Position numbers and translations under genes: made by a program
NCBI GenBank assembly: GCA_016839585.1
Contig: JAEOTZ010000066.1
Location: forward strand, 1-24,006
Origin: Promethearchaeota archaeon
GTDB lineage: Archaea > Asgardarchaeota > Lokiarchaeia > Sigyniarchaeales > SOKP01
Direction of reading: 5' to 3'
Length of the DNA: 24,006 nt
Shown: positions 15,988 to 23,179 of the stretch, one piece after another
How positions within the stretch are numbered: position 1 is the stretch's first letter
Layout of the letters: every line of letters starts with the position of its first letter
The notes under the pieces: model-generated
What the model saw: the letters and a program-made list of their open reading frames with translations, nothing else
Databases searched by the model: none
What the model was told of the DNA's origin: nothing

Positions 15988-17238
15988 TTATTTTTTATTA
16001 AAATAGTCAGACTCTAGGTTTGGGAATATTTTTTTCTTCCTTCCTTCTTTTTTAAAGTTTATCAAGCCTAATTCTTCAAGTTTCCTTATATGATATTGTA
16101 TTGTTTTATGATCAACCTTGAGTTTTTTAGTAATTAAATTATTCCATATTCCTGGATCTTGCTCAATCATTTCTAGTATTTCTAAAGTGAATTTACTTTT
16201 TTGTAACTTTAAATCAATATTAGAAATAGGATTTTTTTGATAATAAGGAAAATAAGCAATAAAGTTACCTACTCTTTTTTTTCCAATTATTTTGTAAGTC
16301 TGAAGAATATCAAGGTGCCACACCAAGTTTCCAGCAGCAAGGCTTGTCTTTCGTAATAATTCATTAAAATGAACTCCAGGCTCGTTTAAAATTAGTTCAA
16401 TAATTTTACTTCGATTTTCGTTTTCTAGAACATCATCTAAGGATAATCTATGAGCCCCTTTCTCAATTGAGATAGTTCTGGTTCTTAAATATTGAAAATA
16501 ATCTCTTTTTGAAATTAAATATGCTATTGATAAAATACTAACAACAGTTATTAATATTGTTGTTATCAACCATGTCCAATCATAAGATTCTACAGTAAAC
16601 TCAAAAAGTGTGACAAAATAATCAATACCTCCTCCAAGACCTAAAAGAGTACCTTCTAAGTATGGTTCCAAAGTTGATTCATTGATCTTCTCTTCTGTGT
16701 CAATTAATTCCCACGAGTCTTGATTTGTTTCATATATCGCCAAAGAGTAATTGATACTAGGTCTTAATCCATATAAACTATTTTTTCGATACATAATAGT
16801 TAAATTTTCAATTGAAGTATTGACCCTTATTCTAAAAATACAATTATATTTGTATCTCAGCTGAAAATTTCCTTTTTTTGGATTTGGGGGGAGATTTGAG
16901 ATACCATAGCTTTTCATGCTTGTTTTTGACGTTATATTTAAAGACATAGACTCATTGTTGCTAAACATAAAATAAGATTGACGATTTTTTATATTGTTAT
17001 CATATTCCATATAGAGATCTATTAGAGAATCTGTTGAAATTTCAAATATAATATTATTTGGAAAATAATAAGAAACATGTTCTCCAGGGTTAACTGTATC
17101 TTCTGTCCAAAAATCGGGAATATCTTCATCTCTAGCTAATACATAATAAAAAAAAAAATTAAACTCAAGAATAAGAATAAATACGAATAAAATTTTTAAC
17201 CGATGCTTTTTCTTAGTAATTCTTCTATTAAAAATCAA
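15988..17238 (-). CDS. Membrane-spanning transcriptional regulator: signal peptide/anchor, beta-rich ectodomain, TM helix, tandem winged helix-turn-helix (COG3398-like)
   Basis: TTG start; basic n-region plus hydrophobic stretch ending VLA; six N-x-S/T sequons; TM WLITTILITVVSILSIAYLI-SKR; LENENRSKIIELILNEPGVHFNELLRKT.L..G.L.WHL..L and ILEMIEQDPGI....ITKKL.VDHKTIQYHIRKLEELGLI. Confidence 0.85.
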   Translation of the reverse strand: MIFNRRITKKKHRLKILFVFILILEFNFFFYYVLARDEDIPDFWTEDTVNPGEHVSYYFPNNIIFEISTDSLIDLYMEYDNNIKNRQSYFMFSNNESMSLNITSKTSMKSYGISNLPPNPKKGNFQLRYKYNCIFRIRVNTSIENLTIMYRKNSLYGLRPSINYSLAIYETNQDSWELIDTEEKINESTLEPYLEGTLLGLGGGIDYFVTLFEFTVESYDWTWLITTILITVVSILSIAYLISKRDYFQYLRTRTISIEKGAHRLSLDDVLENENRSKIIELILNEPGVHFNELLRKTSLAAGNLVWHLDILQTYKIIGKKRVGNFIAYFPYYQKNPISNIDLKLQKSKFTLEILEMIEQDPGIWNNLITKKLKVDHKTIQYHIRKLEELGLINFKKEGRKKKIFPNLESDYFNKK

Positions 17239-17279
17239 ATAAGTTCAATTTTTGGTAATATTTTCTTAATTTAATTAAT

Positions 17280-17310
17280 AAAAATAAAAAAAATTTTTAG
17301 TTTTAAAAAA
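17280..17310 (-). terminator. Oligo-T tracts on the minus strand between the surface-protein gene and the regulator gene
   Basis: A6 at 17305-17310 and an A-rich run at 17280-17293, just downstream of the TAA at 17319. Confidence 0.4.
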
Positions 17311-17318
17311 TTGGTTGC

Positions 17319-17990
17319 TTATTGTTGTATTCTTTTTCTAAGAAAAGCAACTGAAACTACAGCAATTACTCCTATTATAGCAGCAATACCAACATAAATT
17401 ACAACATTTTCTACACCTATTGGAATTAAAATAGTCCACGAAGAAAAGTGATCCACTTCCGCAGTTAAATAGTCATCTTCAATTGTAGTAGGAACAGGAA
17501 CCCATTTGTCACCTTCATAATGTGCCCAAACACCATTTCTATTATGGATTGATGCTTTAATGCGTAATCTTGCTTGGATTTCTGAACAATTACATCCTAT
17601 TGAAATACAGAATCCTTCTCGATAAGTATATCTATTACGGGTTCTTGTATGAACCCTATAACCTTTTAATAATCCAAGCTCAGCTTGCTCTTCTGTACAA
17701 GTCATATTCATTAGACAATCACCAGATGTACTAAGCTCTAATATAAAATCCTTTGCTCCAATCTTCAAAGCTTCACATTCTATGTTTATACAAACACATT
17801 GATCGCAATCTATACGTATCTGTGTTTGATTACGAAATCGTATTGCATTTTCACCTGGATCTAGAGTACCACTATATTCATCTGTTGGAATATCTAAAGG
17901 CGATGCTGCTGCTACATTACTTATGCTAACTATGGAAATTAGTGCTATAAAAACAAAAGCTCCCAGTAAAATTTTATTAAATTTTTTCAT
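17319..17990 (-). CDS. Type I membrane/surface protein, Cys-rich, with a juxtamembrane HFS (GAIN/ZU5-like autoproteolysis) motif
   Basis: Signal peptide MKKFNKILLGAFVFIALISIVSISNVAA; 9 Cys; sequons NQT/NMT/NCS; W.....T......YLTAEVDHFSSWTILI; C-terminal TM plus RKR; AGGTG SD at 18001-18005. Confidence 0.85.
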   Translation of the reverse strand: MKKFNKILLGAFVFIALISIVSISNVAAASPLDIPTDEYSGTLDPGENAIRFRNQTQIRIDCDQCVCINIECEALKIGAKDFILELSTSGDCLMNMTCTEEQAELGLLKGYRVHTRTRNRYTYREGFCISIGCNCSEIQARLRIKASIHNRNGVWAHYEGDKWVPVPTTIEDDYLTAEVDHFSSWTILIPIGVENVVIYVGIAAIIGVIAVVSVAFLRKRIQQ

Positions 17991-18068: not shown

Positions 18069-18176
18069 TTAAAGGAAAAATTACAGAAAAGATTTAAGAA
18101 GAAAAAATCAACTGCTTAAAACCTTAAGTTTTAATATCATCATTTTGAAAATATTATTAAAGCCTTTCAGATTAAA

Positions 18177-18212
18177 ATATTAATATAGAATTCATATTAA
18201 TATAGAATTCAT
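18177..18212. repeat. Perfect tandem 17-bp direct repeat ATATTAATATAGAATTC x2 (+AT)
   Basis: Copies at 18177-18193 and 18194-18210, about 35 nt upstream of the ATG at 18245. Confidence 0.85.
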
Positions 18213-18244: not shown

Positions 18245-20500
18245 ATGTCGTTAAAAGAATTCACTAAAGAAGTATTTACGAGGTATGGATTCGCTGAAGA
18301 ACAAATTAATATATATATAGTTTATTTAAGAGTGCCTCGTGCAACACCTTCTGAAGTATACATGACTCTAACCGAGGAACATAAAGAATTAACCTATGAG
18401 AAAGTATTAGAAATTACAAATTGGTTAGTTGAGAAGGGTTTTCTTAAAAGAGTTGAAGGTATTGTAGATAGATACATCCCTCTTGAACCCTACTTCGAAT
18501 TATTTACAACTGAATCAGAACTCTTTAGAAATGAAATTGCTAAAATAAAAGATAATATCTTAGCAGATCAATCTAACCGTTTTGAAAAACTTGAAGCTAT
18601 ACAAAACAAAAGTATAGGAGAAGTAGAAACTGCTGTTGATGGTCAAATTAAAGCATTTTTCGAAGATTCTGACTCAAAAAATAATATTAAGAAAAATAAA
18701 ATTGATAATGCAAGAACTCGCTTTACAGAAACTACTAAAGAATTAGAGACTAATATTCACACTATAATGGATACATTAAACACTGATTTAAAGAATATTT
18801 CAACTACAGCTGTAGGTGACAATGAGTCAACTGTCAATAAAACAAAAGATAATTTGACAACTTTAATTGCAGATTTGTTAAATGATTTTTCAACTCGTGT
18901 GGAGAATTTAGATAAAGAATTGAAAAGGGAGTTAGATGAGCACGTAGAAAGACATAAAACTACTGCAAATGAACTAAAACCAAAAATGGAACAGATTTTA
19001 GAAAAATATCTAGAGAGAATGGATAAGGTAGTTACTGATTTAAAAGAAAAAATTTCTGGTCTATTAAAAGAGCATATGAATCATGTGAAAAACACTACAG
19101 ATACACTTCAAACCAACTTAAAAGCAACTGTTGATGAGAGACATAGAATATTAACTGATCAAACTAATGATTTTAAAAGTATGACTCTTACTTTAATTGA
19201 TAATCTTCTTGAACATGCTAATCGTTTTACTGATTTTTCAGAAGATATGGCTAAAAAAGGATTTTTCTGGCTTGGAAAAAAGAAAAAATATAAAGCTAGG
19301 CATGAGACTACCATACAAAATATATTAACTTACACTGAACCTATGAAAGATGATTTTGTTAAAACGAGTGAGGATTATATTACTACGACCAGAGAAACAA
19401 CCGATCAAATAAAAACAGATGTAACTGATATAATGACTAAGGAAAATGATGGACTAGGCTCTGAAACCACTGATCTTGATTATAAAGCTCAAGAGACAAT
19501 TGATGCGCAATTAGAGAACTTAGCGACAGATATGGCGTCTGAAATTGATAGTACATTGCAAAGTGGAGTAAAAGACTGTTCTGATACCAATTTAAAGTTA
19601 AAGGATTCCACAGAAAGTACTTTAAAGCAACATCATAGACAATATGATGAAGCAATTAATAGGCATAAAGACGGCTCTTTAAGACATTACACTGATTTTG
19701 ACACTGAAATTAAAAGAATTAATGAAAACTGGACTAGAGATACAGATAGTAAATTTTCTGGAGGGAAAAGAGATTGCTCTGACAAAATTAATAATGAGAT
19801 TCAATTATGGAATGGAGAAACTAGTGAATTAGATAAAAGTTTAACTGATATGCTGGCTGATCACAAATCTAAATATGAAGAAAACGCGAAAACATTACAA
19901 AATAGTTTATCAAATACAACTCGAGACACCACACAGAATATTAAAGATGCCATTGCTGATTTTACACTCCAATTCATGAATTCCATCGATGATGGCACAG
20001 AATTAGCTGAAAATAATGAAGATAAATTGAAGGATATCCATCATGCATCTAGTTCAATTCCAGAAAGATCTAAAGTTACAACTTGGCATGTAGTTGGACG
20101 GGATGCAATGATTGCTGCAATAAAAGATGCAGTATATAGAACTAAATCATCGATAATCATTGTGACTCCAGTAGTAATTCCCGAAATTTTACAAGTTGTT
20201 TCTGAATTTGCATTCCAGAAAAAGGCAGCGCGATTCATGCTTACCTCCCAATGGGATTTGAAACAGTATGCCGGCATTATTGCGAAGATGAAGCAACTTG
20301 GAAATATTCAGTTTCGACAATTGTCTACCGCCGGAGAGTTCTTCGCTGTCACTAGAGATGCTGAGGAAACTATAATTGGTCCTTACACTGCCAGAGAGGG
20401 TGATATGATTAGTATTGTGAGCAATCAGGAGCAATACTCTAAGCTTTACGCACAATTTATCGGACCAATATTCCAGGCGAATTCTAGGCCGATAAAGTAG
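18245..20500 (+). CDS. TrmB-like protein: N-terminal winged HTH, ~530-aa helical/coiled-coil insert, C-terminal TrmB effector/PLD-like domain
   Basis: YGFAEEQINIYIVYL....ATPSEV...L....V......LVEKGFL....G...RY.PLEP (TrmB wHTH pattern); long helical region with 22-aa periodicity; TWHVVGRDAM...IKD...RTKSSIIIVTP...FAVTRDAEETIIG (TrmB C-terminal pattern, no HxK); GGAG SD. Confidence 0.8.
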   Translation: MSLKEFTKEVFTRYGFAEEQINIYIVYLRVPRATPSEVYMTLTEEHKELTYEKVLEITNWLVEKGFLKRVEGIVDRYIPLEPYFELFTTESELFRNEIAKIKDNILADQSNRFEKLEAIQNKSIGEVETAVDGQIKAFFEDSDSKNNIKKNKIDNARTRFTETTKELETNIHTIMDTLNTDLKNISTTAVGDNESTVNKTKDNLTTLIADLLNDFSTRVENLDKELKRELDEHVERHKTTANELKPKMEQILEKYLERMDKVVTDLKEKISGLLKEHMNHVKNTTDTLQTNLKATVDERHRILTDQTNDFKSMTLTLIDNLLEHANRFTDFSEDMAKKGFFWLGKKKKYKARHETTIQNILTYTEPMKDDFVKTSEDYITTTRETTDQIKTDVTDIMTKENDGLGSETTDLDYKAQETIDAQLENLATDMASEIDSTLQSGVKDCSDTNLKLKDSTESTLKQHHRQYDEAINRHKDGSLRHYTDFDTEIKRINENWTRDTDSKFSGGKRDCSDKINNEIQLWNGETSELDKSLTDMLADHKSKYEENAKTLQNSLSNTTRDTTQNIKDAIADFTLQFMNSIDDGTELAENNEDKLKDIHHASSSIPERSKVTTWHVVGRDAMIAAIKDAVYRTKSSIIIVTPVVIPEILQVVSEFAFQKKAARFMLTSQWDLKQYAGIIAKMKQLGNIQFRQLSTAGEFFAVTRDAEETIIGPYTAREGDMISIVSNQEQYSKLYAQFIGPIFQANSRPIK

Positions 20501-20651: not shown

Positions 20652-21263
20652 TTATATGTAAGGTGAAATGTCAAAATCCTGCTCTAATGAAAGATTTATG
20701 AACTCATCTACTTCCTGCTGCGAGTCTCCATAAATTTTTAAAAGGAATCCATTATCTTTTTTCTCAATTTCGGCCCTAAAACCATAAGACTTTGCTTTAT
20801 ACTCGAGAACTTTTACCTTCTCTTCATTTTCAATCCCTTTAATTAAAAATTCGCCGAAATAATGACCTTTTGAAATTTTGCGGAGGTCACAAGCTTGTAC
20901 TCGTATAATTTTTCCGTTTGGTGCTTGGCATTTTAAGAATATTGAACCACCTGATGGTTTTTCAAGTAATTTAACTTCATTGTAAGTTCCAACTTTACAA
21001 AAAACAGTATCACCTATCTGGGCATTTTTTAATACCTCCAAGCCCATATCACGAGCAATCTTTCTGATAAAATCTAACCGCTTTTCTTCTTTTTGTATCC
21101 ACTTACATGCCCTCCGTATTAAAGAAGGTATCTTTGAAAATTCACGATTTATGATAAGTCGAGCATGTAATCGAAAATAATCGCAAAGAGGATAATCTTT
21201 TTCTAAGTCATATATCCTATAAGGACAATTCTTAAAATCTTGATCACAGACAATATCCGTCAT
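20652..21263 (-). CDS. Hypothetical protein (Cys-rich N-terminus, SH3/KOW-like middle, small alpha/beta C-terminal domain)
   Basis: 203-aa ORF with ATG start and normal composition, with no competing ORF; no family recognised. Confidence 0.75.
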   Translation of the reverse strand: MTDIVCDQDFKNCPYRIYDLEKDYPLCDYFRLHARLIINREFSKIPSLIRRACKWIQKEEKRLDFIRKIARDMGLEVLKNAQIGDTVFCKVGTYNEVKLLEKPSGGSIFLKCQAPNGKIIRVQACDLRKISKGHYFGEFLIKGIENEEKVKVLEYKAKSYGFRAEIEKKDNGFLLKIYGDSQQEVDEFINLSLEQDFDISPYI

Positions 21264-21700: not shown

Positions 21701-22987
21701 TTAATCCCATGTAGCTTTCTTTACTGACTCGTCATCATCTTCGCTATGAATTCGTTTCAAATTAATGTCTTGATATCCGGGGAGAACACTTAACATCCTT
21801 CTCATTGCAAATTCAACATCTTTCGCGCTGGCTATAAATCTGCCAACAATAAGAATATCTGCTCCTTGTTCTAAGGCATACACAGCAGTACTGGGTTCGA
21901 TACCGCCAGCAACAGCGACTAAAACTCTATCTCTTCCCGAAGCTTTCCTTTGACCAGTATATAACTCTTTAATTTTTGGAACTAAACCCCATCTAGCTTT
22001 TTGAGCTGAGTCAGGAGATTTATCTCCCTCTATAGATTGCTCAACATCAATAGCTCTATGGATTATTACAACATCTGGGGTCTGCATGAGCGACCCCAAT
22101 TTCTCAATGGGATTTGGAACTTCCATTGTATCGACAAATGCATGAATTCCAAGTCGTTGGGCCTCCATAATAAATTTATCGAGTGAAGCAGTAGAAGCTA
22201 AACCACTTGCCACAACTCCATCAGCAGTAGCATCAAAAGCAAAATCAACTTCTAATTTTCCAACATCTAAAGTCTTTAAATCAGCAACAATAAACTTATC
22301 TTTCGCAAGCTCACGAATCTTCTTAATGGATTCAACGCCATATTTCTTGAGAAATGGTGTACCAACTTCTAGTAAAATTCTATCACTTTTAGGTAATTGA
22401 TTAACAACTTTCATTTGCTTTTCCAAGGCAGGATGGTCTAAAGCTACCTGTATATAAGGTGGACGCCATAGTCTAGGGACTCTAATCCCTGCAACTGGAT
22501 GTTTAGCCCTATCTTTATCATAAAAAATCTTTTCAATTGGAGGATATCCTCTTAAAGCTCTCTGAATTGCTAATTTTGTAGCGCCATAATTATATTGATA
22601 AATTTTACGATAATCTTTGGCATCTGGATGAATATATACAGTTGCGATTATCAACCAATCATCTATTTTATTCATTGGAATAATTCCTTCTTCAACGGCA
22701 TCAGCTATCCCTTTAGCAACAGCAGCTTGAGCAGGTCCAAAGATTTTGCTTGCATCTTCCATTTTAGCAACAGTTACTTTGGGAACAATTATTGCATATG
22801 GACGAGTCAAGAGATTTGGTCTGATTCCTGCTAATAACCCCCCATGCCCTTTTGAAGGTGATCCAATCGCATTCGCAAATGAGATACCTATAGGTCCATT
22901 CTTAGAACCTATTACTAAATCTATGTGTGCTAAATCAGCTCCTTCTCCAACAAGCGCCTCGCCAACGTAATACTCAGGTTTTGGCAT
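21701..22987 (-). CDS. fae-hps: Bifunctional formaldehyde-activating enzyme / 3-hexulose-6-phosphate synthase (Fae-Hps)
   Basis: Fae: GEALVGEG..LAHIDLVIG, PNL, PKVT, GPAQAAVAK..AD.VEEG, YNYGATK.AI.RA. Hps: YIQVALD, LEVGTP, ADLKTLDVG, HRAID, VAGGI, GADILIVGR. ATG at 22987 chosen; an in-frame GTG at 22996 is the alternative start. Confidence 0.95.
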   Translation of the reverse strand: MPKPEYYVGEALVGEGADLAHIDLVIGSKNGPIGISFANAIGSPSKGHGGLLAGIRPNLLTRPYAIIVPKVTVAKMEDASKIFGPAQAAVAKGIADAVEEGIIPMNKIDDWLIIATVYIHPDAKDYRKIYQYNYGATKLAIQRALRGYPPIEKIFYDKDRAKHPVAGIRVPRLWRPPYIQVALDHPALEKQMKVVNQLPKSDRILLEVGTPFLKKYGVESIKKIRELAKDKFIVADLKTLDVGKLEVDFAFDATADGVVASGLASTASLDKFIMEAQRLGIHAFVDTMEVPNPIEKLGSLMQTPDVVIIHRAIDVEQSIEGDKSPDSAQKARWGLVPKIKELYTGQRKASGRDRVLVAVAGGIEPSTAVYALEQGADILIVGRFIASAKDVEFAMRRMLSVLPGYQDINLKRIHSEDDDESVKKATWD

Positions 22988-23179
22988 AAATATCACAACT
23001 AATTTTTCTTTTAAACCTTACTTTTTTTGTATATCTTGTAGATATTTTTTATTTATAATAGTGTATTTTATAGGTAATATAAAAAAATATTTACCTACAT
23101 GAAATTAGAGTTAATACACCATATATTAAAATTTTCATATGATTGATATATTAAAGATTCTATTTTTAAAGAACTAATT

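Follow-up and report, generated by a model that had tools for sequence, protein, structure and literature searches.

The window analysed here is a 24,006-nucleotide stretch from a Promethearchaeota archaeon (positions 1 to 24,006 of contig JAEOTZ010000066.1, assembly GCA_016839585.1), and this report concerns one gene in it, the product of which is here named the rod protein. The two end domains of this protein, which family-level profile and model tests identify as TrmB/TrmBL2-like, are connected by two very long helices, and we find it very probable that these helices fold back on one another to form an antiparallel rod with a basic and hydrophobic apex at its far end. A fold-back antiparallel rod had already been proposed in an earlier reading of the stretch, made by a model without database searches (the sequence-only reading), and the proposal has held up against four lines of evidence: mirrored insertions in relatives, a helix break at the midpoint, symmetric model confidence and covariation between the arms. 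The gene and its parts are listed in Table 1.

Two arms and a midpoint break

In an AlphaFold2 model, generated from a 55-sequence alignment, uninterrupted helices extend from residue 83 to 337 and from residue 346 to 603, and the low-confidence loop that separates them (residues 338–345) is the only break. The sequence-only reading had placed a turn at residues 335–350, which is where this sole break falls. The arms are 255 and 258 residues long, corresponding to approximately 38 nm at 0.1485 nm per residue. The earlier figures of about 260 residues and 39 nm per arm were slightly too high. Where TrmB-family proteins have a single short coiled-coil helix between their domains, the rod protein has these two helices instead.

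Comparison with relatives that share 40–55% identity with the rod protein revealed matched insertions in the two arms, at approximately residues 169 and 507 of the query. The midpoint of these positions is residue 338 and they are equidistant from the tip. Across the longer relatives, the insertion points are confined to residues 163–169 in the outgoing arm and 507–512 in the returning arm. Insertion sizes are the same in both arms: 44 residues in each arm of P0122, 62 in each arm of P0124, 150 in each arm of P0127 and a net 51 in each arm of P0126. In P0125, which is encoded on a 3-kb contig without gene context, the multiple alignment placed the insertions in mirror order, with 44 followed by 62 in the outgoing arm and 62 followed by 44 in the returning arm. 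Independent pairwise alignments returned the same per-arm sums. The inserted pieces are made up of 22-residue repeats in both arms. At the other extreme, a 323-residue relative retains only the bases of the arms, and its model has helices at residues 78–119 and 124–174. The expectation in the sequence-only reading that length variants would change symmetrically in both arms was therefore borne out, as gains and losses are equal and mirror-ordered and the basic/hydrophobic break stays at the midpoint. Tandem homologous repeats would put insertions at equal offsets from the starts of the arms, whereas those observed are equidistant from the tip. The matched mirror-order indels reveal a constraint on the two arms to pair.

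The confidence of the AlphaFold2 model (predicted local distance difference test, pLDDT) along the first arm mirrors that along the second about i+j=682 (r=0.99), and parallel shifts gave r<0. Covariation between the arms, calculated as smoothed mutual information with average product correction and compared across approximately 500 antiparallel and parallel registers, was maximal at i+j=681–686 (z 3.6–3.8). This is a modest signal, drawn from approximately 51 effective sequences, and unsmoothed single anti-diagonals were not decisive, as parallel offsets gave similar z scores. Counting against a fold-back rod, the model has a predicted template modelling score (pTM) of only 0.37, with a mean pLDDT of 77, and antiparallel packing and contact between the N- and C-terminal domains were deduced rather than read from predicted contacts. 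As the mirror-order insertions, the midpoint break, the pLDDT symmetry and the covariation are partly independent lines that agree, we nonetheless conclude that the fold-back topology is very probable.

Protein sizes in the family cluster by lineage, at roughly 600, 760, 840, 1040 and 1110 or more residues, and rod lengths are lineage-typical, reaching approximately 440 residues per arm. These conserved, lineage-specific lengths suggest that rod length itself is under selection. More than 100 homologues, sharing 74–97% identity with the rod protein, are exactly 751 residues long, and an alignment of 118 of these is free of gaps, without a single indel. In this set, column identity in the shaft is 0.70–0.93, the same as that of the globular domains.

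The hydrophobic period of the rod is 3.65, which is hendecad-like rather than heptad-like (3.5), and similarity autocorrelation peaks at lags of 22, 44 and 66. Self-BLAST of the rod protein did not detect internal repeats, and only the autocorrelation and the modules inserted in relatives reveal the 22-residue periodicity. Judged from this periodicity, a hairpin built from 22-residue (two-hendecad) repeats should be nearly straight. The net charge of the shaft is −38. Only three prolines (residues 246, 366 and 606) are found in the helical region (residues 86–608), none of them at a repeat boundary. An NCBIfam search returned only weak matches to coiled-coil or helical proteins, such as the ZorA tail. 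A match to the Pfam family Apolipoprotein (PF01442; E 1.5e-10) scored 41.5 bits and is explained by the 22-residue periodicity. Together with the period of 3.65 and the 22-residue repeats in the arms, this weak match is what could be said for amphipathic 11/22-residue helices that open flat on lipid, in the manner of apolipoproteins, perilipins or LEA proteins, in place of a rigid rod. We consider that extremely unlikely: the score is far under the cut-off of 90, the repeats are not punctuated by proline, a shaft with a charge of −38 would be repelled by an anionic membrane and, as set out above, the pattern of indels reveals pairing between the arms as a constraint.

The only two cysteines of the protein lie in the returning arm, in the motifs G-V-K-D-C-S-D-T (residues 441–448, approximately nucleotides 19565–19588) and G-K-R-D-C-S-D-K (residues 507–514, approximately nucleotides 19763–19786), which are spaced 66 residues (3×22) apart. 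The second cysteine varies in close homologues (C, T, V or G), and the second motif coincides with the insertion hot-spot at residues 507–512.

By analogy, the rod resembles those of chemoreceptors and SMC proteins in its topology and in its evolution by symmetric indels. The MCP signalling domain, as Alexander and Zhulin reportedly described it in 2007, is an antiparallel hairpin that forms a four-helix bundle in the dimer, occurs in length classes that differ by symmetric indels and is most conserved at its tip. The long hairpin, the symmetric indels and the most conserved tip are all features of the rod protein. However, the likeness is one of analogy only: the rod protein has hendecads and 22-residue repeats rather than heptads, a head of DNA-binding type rather than a membrane receptor, and a basic/hydrophobic tip rather than a kinase-docking surface, and it did not match MCPsignal (PF00015) in Pfam at E<=1. 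In SMC, Rad50 and MukB, as is predicted here, an antiparallel coiled coil of tens of nanometres unites the N- and C-terminal globular parts, and in those proteins the fold-back end is a functional element, either a hinge or a zinc hook. The rod protein differs in being much smaller and in having a TrmB-type head, with neither an ABC ATPase head nor a hinge domain. Walker A and CxxC motifs were not found in it, and searches of Pfam and NCBIfam returned no SMC or Rad50 matches.

Table 1. Positions of the rod gene and its parts in the window
Feature	Position	Strand	Residues	Details and basis
Whole rod gene	18245..20500	+	751 plus stop codon	ATG start
N-terminal TrmB-type winged helix-turn-helix	18245..18490	+	1–82	Family profile, PF01978, AlphaFold2 secondary structure
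Outgoing arm	18491..19252	+	83–336	One continuous helix, net charge −13; AlphaFold2, periodicity analysis
Apex KKGFFWLGKKKKYKAR	19253..19300	+	337–352	Net charge +8; loop 338–345 (G339-FFWL-G344)
Returning arm	19301..20053	+	353–603	One continuous helix, net charge −25; AlphaFold2, pLDDT mirror symmetry, covariation
Short linker and C-terminal PLD-like alpha/beta domain	20054..20497	+	604–751	Foldseek, transitive link through P0248

Domains of the head

In the AlphaFold2 model, the strands of the winged helix stop at residue 79 and the C-terminal alpha/beta domain spans residues 613–749, close to the boundaries of about 80 and 609 drawn in the sequence-only reading. All 27 N-terminal domains from the family matched PF01978 (best E 7.5e-13), and a profile made from these 27 found TrmB (3qph) with E 1.7e-10 (residues 8–97) and TrmBL2 (5bpd) with E 1.4e-7. 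In the profile alignment to 3qph, Tyr50 and Asp51 of TrmB lie opposite Leu55 and Glu56 of the rod protein, and the family consensus has no Tyr at this position. Y51 and E52, considered as equivalents of the same pair, were ruled out by this alignment. The rod protein on its own matches PF01978 at 19.7 bits (E 8e-4), under the gathering cut-off of 25.6. The winged helix carries a slight negative charge (net −3) and has Leu55 in place of Tyr50, so that DNA binding is not assured. As the DNA-recognition residue Tyr50 is aligned to Leu55, DNA binding by the head is argued from homology of fold only.

When the predicted fold of the C-terminal domain was used as a Foldseek query, the top matches were to TrmB (2f5t; E 1.5e-7) and TrmBL2 (approximately 1e-7), followed by members of the PLD superfamily. 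Superposition on 2f5t gave a root-mean-square deviation of 4.0 Å over 145 columns in one comparison and 2.8 Å over 144 in another. The sequence of this domain on its own found no PDB entry with phmmer, only noise in Pfam and no direct match to PF11495, and a profile of the domain retrieved weak TrmB matches from the PDB amid noise (E 0.2–0.5), including residues 105–235 of 3qph at E 0.2. A link in sequence is provided by a 364-residue relative, P0248, which is matched by the hidden Markov model of the C-terminal domain and has both PF01978 and PF11495 (positions 2–134, 22.7 bits against a cut-off of 22.2). A mini homologue of 323 residues aligns over its full length to TrmBL2 (E 2e-11), and the top eight matches are all to TrmBL2. 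Judged from the models, the C-terminal domain is the counterpart of the first of the two effector subdomains of TrmB (approximately positions 1–135 of PF11495), a PLD-like sheet flanked by helices.

The second TrmB subdomain, the sugar-binding beta-barrel, is absent. The rod protein ends approximately 140 residues past the start of the C-terminal domain, PF11495 matches in relatives end at position 134 of 233, and there are no counterparts of the sugar-binding residues Asn305, Gly320 and Glu326 of TrmB/TrmBL1. The catalytic HKD motif of PLD-superfamily phosphodiesterases such as Nuc, PLD and Zucchini, HxK(x)4D, is not present either. No His is conserved, the majority of homologues have Gln or Pro in place of the sole His of the C-terminal domain (H615), and by-eye alignment finds only the Asp of the motif kept (D705). 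As there is no conserved His, the domain is not that of an HKD enzyme. The conserved residues of the domain are R632, K634, S635, G686, N687, R691, R704, D705, E707 and E708, and by its sequence it is an independent module with motifs of its own (RTKS, GNIQxR, RDxEE and IGPxFxAxSxP). As P0162 and P0190 illustrate, it is also found as a stand-alone protein of 130–230 residues, or fused to N-terminal TPR repeats. From the profile and model comparisons, the head is identified as a TrmB winged helix together with a catalytically dead PLD-like domain, of TrmBL2 type. The rod protein falls outside the SMC, MCP, apolipoprotein and HKD-enzyme families.

TrmBL2 (Thermococcus kodakarensis TK0471 and Pyrococcus furiosus PF0496; PDB 5bpd, 5bpi, 5bqt and 5box) has the same set of domains in the same order as the rod protein, namely a winged helix, then a connector made of helix and lastly one PLD-like C-terminal domain that lacks the sugar-binding barrel. 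It is chromatin-architectural and not a sugar sensor, and likewise lacks the second subdomain (PMC4158304). However, TrmBL2 is a protein of 264 residues with one connecting helix in place of the hairpin and its basic/hydrophobic apex. The two share only 10–14% sequence identity, the equivalent of Tyr50 is Leu in the rod protein and a chromatin role for the latter is putative. TrmB (P. furiosus and Thermococcus litoralis; 3qph and 2f5t) shares the winged helix and the first effector subdomain with the rod protein, and the coiled-coil helix that follows its winged helix mediates dimerisation (PMC4158304). TrmB differs in having the second, beta-barrel subdomain with its sugar-binding residues, and the linker of the rod protein is approximately 17 times longer and folded back.

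The model also points to pairing of two chains. Two copies of the mini form P0134 gave an interface score (ipSAE) of 0.43, with a best control of 0.00. The mark was 0.42, which in calibration 20 of 30 proteins solved as homodimers attained, as did 1 of 23 solved as single chains. Three runs share at least 80% of contacts, with a partner pLDDT of at least 73, and the interface is formed by both arms and the edge strand of the C-terminal domain, including the conserved T613/W614, P713 and S726 (query numbering). Some caution is needed here, as the score only just passes the mark and comes from a short homologue that is 48% identical to the rod protein, with a custom alignment. TrmB and TrmBL2 oligomers have already been solved, so the pass may be model memory. 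P0134 itself matched no contig, and is either a true gene or an assembly product. We conclude from these predictions that the protein probably dimerises through both arms, forming a four-helix shaft, and through the edge strand of the C-terminal domain.

The homology of both terminal domains to TrmB regulators raises the question of whether the protein is a transcription factor still, in which the shaft would act as a sensor or an allosteric element that controls how the winged helix binds DNA, and the apex would serve chiefly as a turn in the structure. The inputs to the shaft could then be temperature, ionic strength, a ligand of the PLD domain or membrane sequestration. The polar cluster conserved in the C-terminal domain (R632, K634, N687, R691, R704, D705, E707 and E708) is a possible ligand site, and the promoter region is conserved and includes two GAATTC-containing repeats, a possible operator for autoregulation. 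The conserved upstream block (positions 18119–18212) is common to three orthologous loci (L002, L004 and L005). Within it are a TATA-like AT-rich stretch, TTGAAAATATTATTAAAG, at 18145–18162 and, in this window, a perfect tandem 17-bp repeat, ATTAATATAGAATTCAT, at 18179–18195 and 18196–18212. Each copy of the repeat contains the palindrome GAATTC, and the pair is located downstream of the TATA-like box and upstream of the start codon of the rod gene. The orthologous loci also have two GAATTC-containing copies, spaced wider. On sequence grounds, the repeat pair is a candidate operator that could serve in autoregulation of the rod gene. However, the rod protein has neither the sugar-binding subdomain nor the Tyr50 of TrmB (PMC4158304), a plain turn is unlikely to be the most conserved, basic and hydrophobic element of the rod across families, and the conserved rod lengths typical of each lineage suggest selection on length. 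We therefore regard a conventional regulatory role, with any of these inputs, as very unlikely.

The apex and what it may dock on

The helical region has its midpoint at residue 343 ((83+603)/2), and the FFW triplet occupies residues 340–342, exactly where the sequence-only reading had put it. The apex includes the 15-residue window with the highest positive charge in the protein (+7) and has eight or nine Lys/Arg plus a Tyr, and the hexamer GFFWLG is the most interfacially hydrophobic of the rod protein. The earlier description of this motif as the only aromatic-basic cluster in the helical region applies to the combination of aromatic and polybasic residues, which is unique, but not to aromatics as such, as F138–139, F328 and F331, among others, are found elsewhere in the region. 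In the 118 close homologues, the tip block has the highest column identity of the rod (0.93), and F340, W342, G344 and K338, K345, K346, K348 and K350 are invariant.

Beyond these close homologues, the character of the tip is kept rather than its sequence. Among 14 family members with helical regions of 521–879 residues, drawn from several Asgard families, all 14 have Gly or Pro within 10 residues either side of the geometric midpoint, and in 10 the top basic-plus-Gly/Pro window lies within 8 residues either side of it. The tips of relatives at 40–55% identity are KRGSAWKALFLGKHK, and more distant relatives retain only the hydrophobic, basic and Gly/Pro character. Thus, of the FFW/Lys tip that was expected to be conserved, the basic and hydrophobic character at the midpoint is, but the FFW triplet is confined to the closest lineage.

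Membrane-binding loops or short helices with exposed hydrophobic and basic residues are known from other proteins, among them DivIVA (Phe17/Arg18) and MinD (C-terminal KGFLKRLFGG). The loop of DivIVA, at the end of a coiled coil, and the C-terminus of MinD are, like the apex of the rod, short exposed hydrophobic or aromatic segments flanked by Lys/Arg. They are not homologous to the apex, which differs in being an internal hairpin loop and is a putative membrane binder.

As the shaft is acidic (−38) and the apex is its sole basic patch (+8) and exposes FFWL, docking would be expected to occur end-on and by the tip only. We propose that the antiparallel hairpin of 255 and 258 residues, approximately 38 nm long, has taken the place of the one helix that connects the domains of TrmB, and that paired chains would have both their winged helices at the same end of the shaft, with the two apex loops at the opposite end. 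The basic, Gly-flanked FFWL apex would dock by its tip on an anionic surface with a hydrophobic interior, most likely the inner face of the cell membrane, and the head, by homology to TrmB and TrmBL2, would hold DNA or chromatin at a fixed, lineage-specific distance. That the protein is a tether or spacer with a membrane-binding tip, and not a sugar-sensing regulator, is our tentative preference. The fuller proposal, of a dedicated chromatin–membrane strut in Asgard archaea, with the head on DNA and the apex of a 27–66-nm rod in the membrane, is rather unlikely as it stands. Arguing against the tether, a tip rich in basic residues would suit DNA or an acidic protein just as well, the FFW triplet is confined to one lineage, with just one to three hydrophobic tip residues kept in distant relatives, and comparison of gene neighbourhoods found no conserved neighbours that hint at membrane or chromatin.

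A protein partner for the apex, for example a filament of the cytoskeleton, part of the division or ESCRT machinery or a second rod, would make the rod a scaffold that links the head to that partner, in the manner of the Rad50 hook or the conserved chemoreceptor tip. In a variant of this, tip-to-tip pairing would bridge two DNA-bound heads approximately 76 nm apart. The tip block being the most conserved part of the rod is a pattern typical of a specific protein interface, and the exposed aromatics in the low-confidence loop suit such an interface as well as they suit a membrane. The arms, conserved like globular domains and without indels in 118 sequences, may themselves carry partner-binding surfaces. 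However, no conserved neighbouring gene points to a partner, and neither CxxC nor any other known hook motif is present. Moreover, the tip sequence drifts between Asgard families and only its basic/hydrophobic character is kept, which favours a generic lipid or DNA surface. Docking on a partner protein is accordingly unlikely, and the same can be said of tip-to-tip pairing.

If the generic surface were DNA, the polybasic apex would be a second DNA site, and the dimer would bridge or loop DNA over approximately 38 nm as an architectural chromatin protein that does without SMC. TrmBL2, the closest solved relative, is an abundant, non-specific chromatin protein (PMC4158304), there are eight or nine Lys/Arg plus Tyr at the tip, and the acidic shaft would hold all but the ends of the rod off DNA. 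Nonetheless, we find this decidedly unlikely, as a Gly-flanked FFWL/FFF loop is unusual for DNA binding and is the most lipid-seeking segment of the protein, and several distant relatives have only two to four basic residues at the tip. Of the surfaces considered, the membrane is the one that we prefer for the apex.

Genomic context, distribution and significance

The rod gene (contig 55) is present as one copy in a 3.45-Mb genome that is 99% complete. The names given in databases to near-identical proteins assign the source to the Lokiarchaeia/Promethearchaeota, within the Asgard archaea. The window is AT-rich (26–38% GC), and a Shine-Dalgarno-like GGAG is found 9 nt 5′ of the ATG of the rod gene. 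No intrinsic-terminator-like site was found downstream of it. Two co-oriented genes (positions 15988–17990, minus strand) are divergent from the rod gene. The product of the first is 223 residues and has no Pfam matches, and that of the second is 416 residues with HTH_HVO_0163_N and HTH_24 at its C-terminus. This pair adjoins the rod gene in L002 and L019, and not in more distant Asgard families. Directly downstream, on the opposite strand, is an open reading frame for 203 residues without a Pfam match (20652–21263, minus strand), in the place of which L002 has a Peptidase_U32 gene. Convergent to the rod gene is a fusion of formaldehyde-activating enzyme (Fae) and an OMPdecase/HUMPS-family, hexulose-phosphate-synthase-like gene (21701–22996, minus strand), and five loci of related genomes also have this fusion close to the rod gene. 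When gene neighbourhoods were compared across 16 loci of distant Asgard families, no universally conserved neighbour was found, and synteny is at the level of lineages only.

At a presence threshold of E<=1e-10, the family was detected in 77 of 151 sampled Asgard genomes and in 24 of 25 from the same family as the source of the window, and is usually single-copy, as it is in the latter family. Orthologues are annotated as 'hypothetical', 'sugar-specific transcriptional regulator TrmB' or 'vacuolar-type H+-ATPase subunit E/Vma4', and the TrmB and V-ATPase subunit E names are misleading with respect to the rod architecture. The clusters retrieved from the ESM Atlas were all either of Asgard 'hypothetical protein' entries or of short TrmB proteins of the ordinary kind. 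We found no description of a TrmB-headed fold-back rod in the literature searched: a Haloferax cell-shape paper mentions TrmB and coiled coils in unrelated contexts only, and an Asgard chromatin preprint has a 'TrmBL' class, without a means of mapping it to the rod protein.

In the rod protein, a transcription-factor scaffold has been turned into a long mechanical element, the length of which is set by paired repeat gains in both arms, a rule documented before mainly for chemoreceptors. Should the protein be a chromatin–membrane strut, it would set how far the nucleoid lies from the envelope and would be a prokaryotic counterpart, in function, of the proteins that tether chromatin to the nuclear envelope in eukaryotes. 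Rod length would then work as a molecular ruler, changing over evolution in paired steps of 22 residues. Should the tip prove to bind membrane and the head DNA, the family would connect the organisation of the genome with that of the membrane in the prokaryotes most closely related to eukaryotes.

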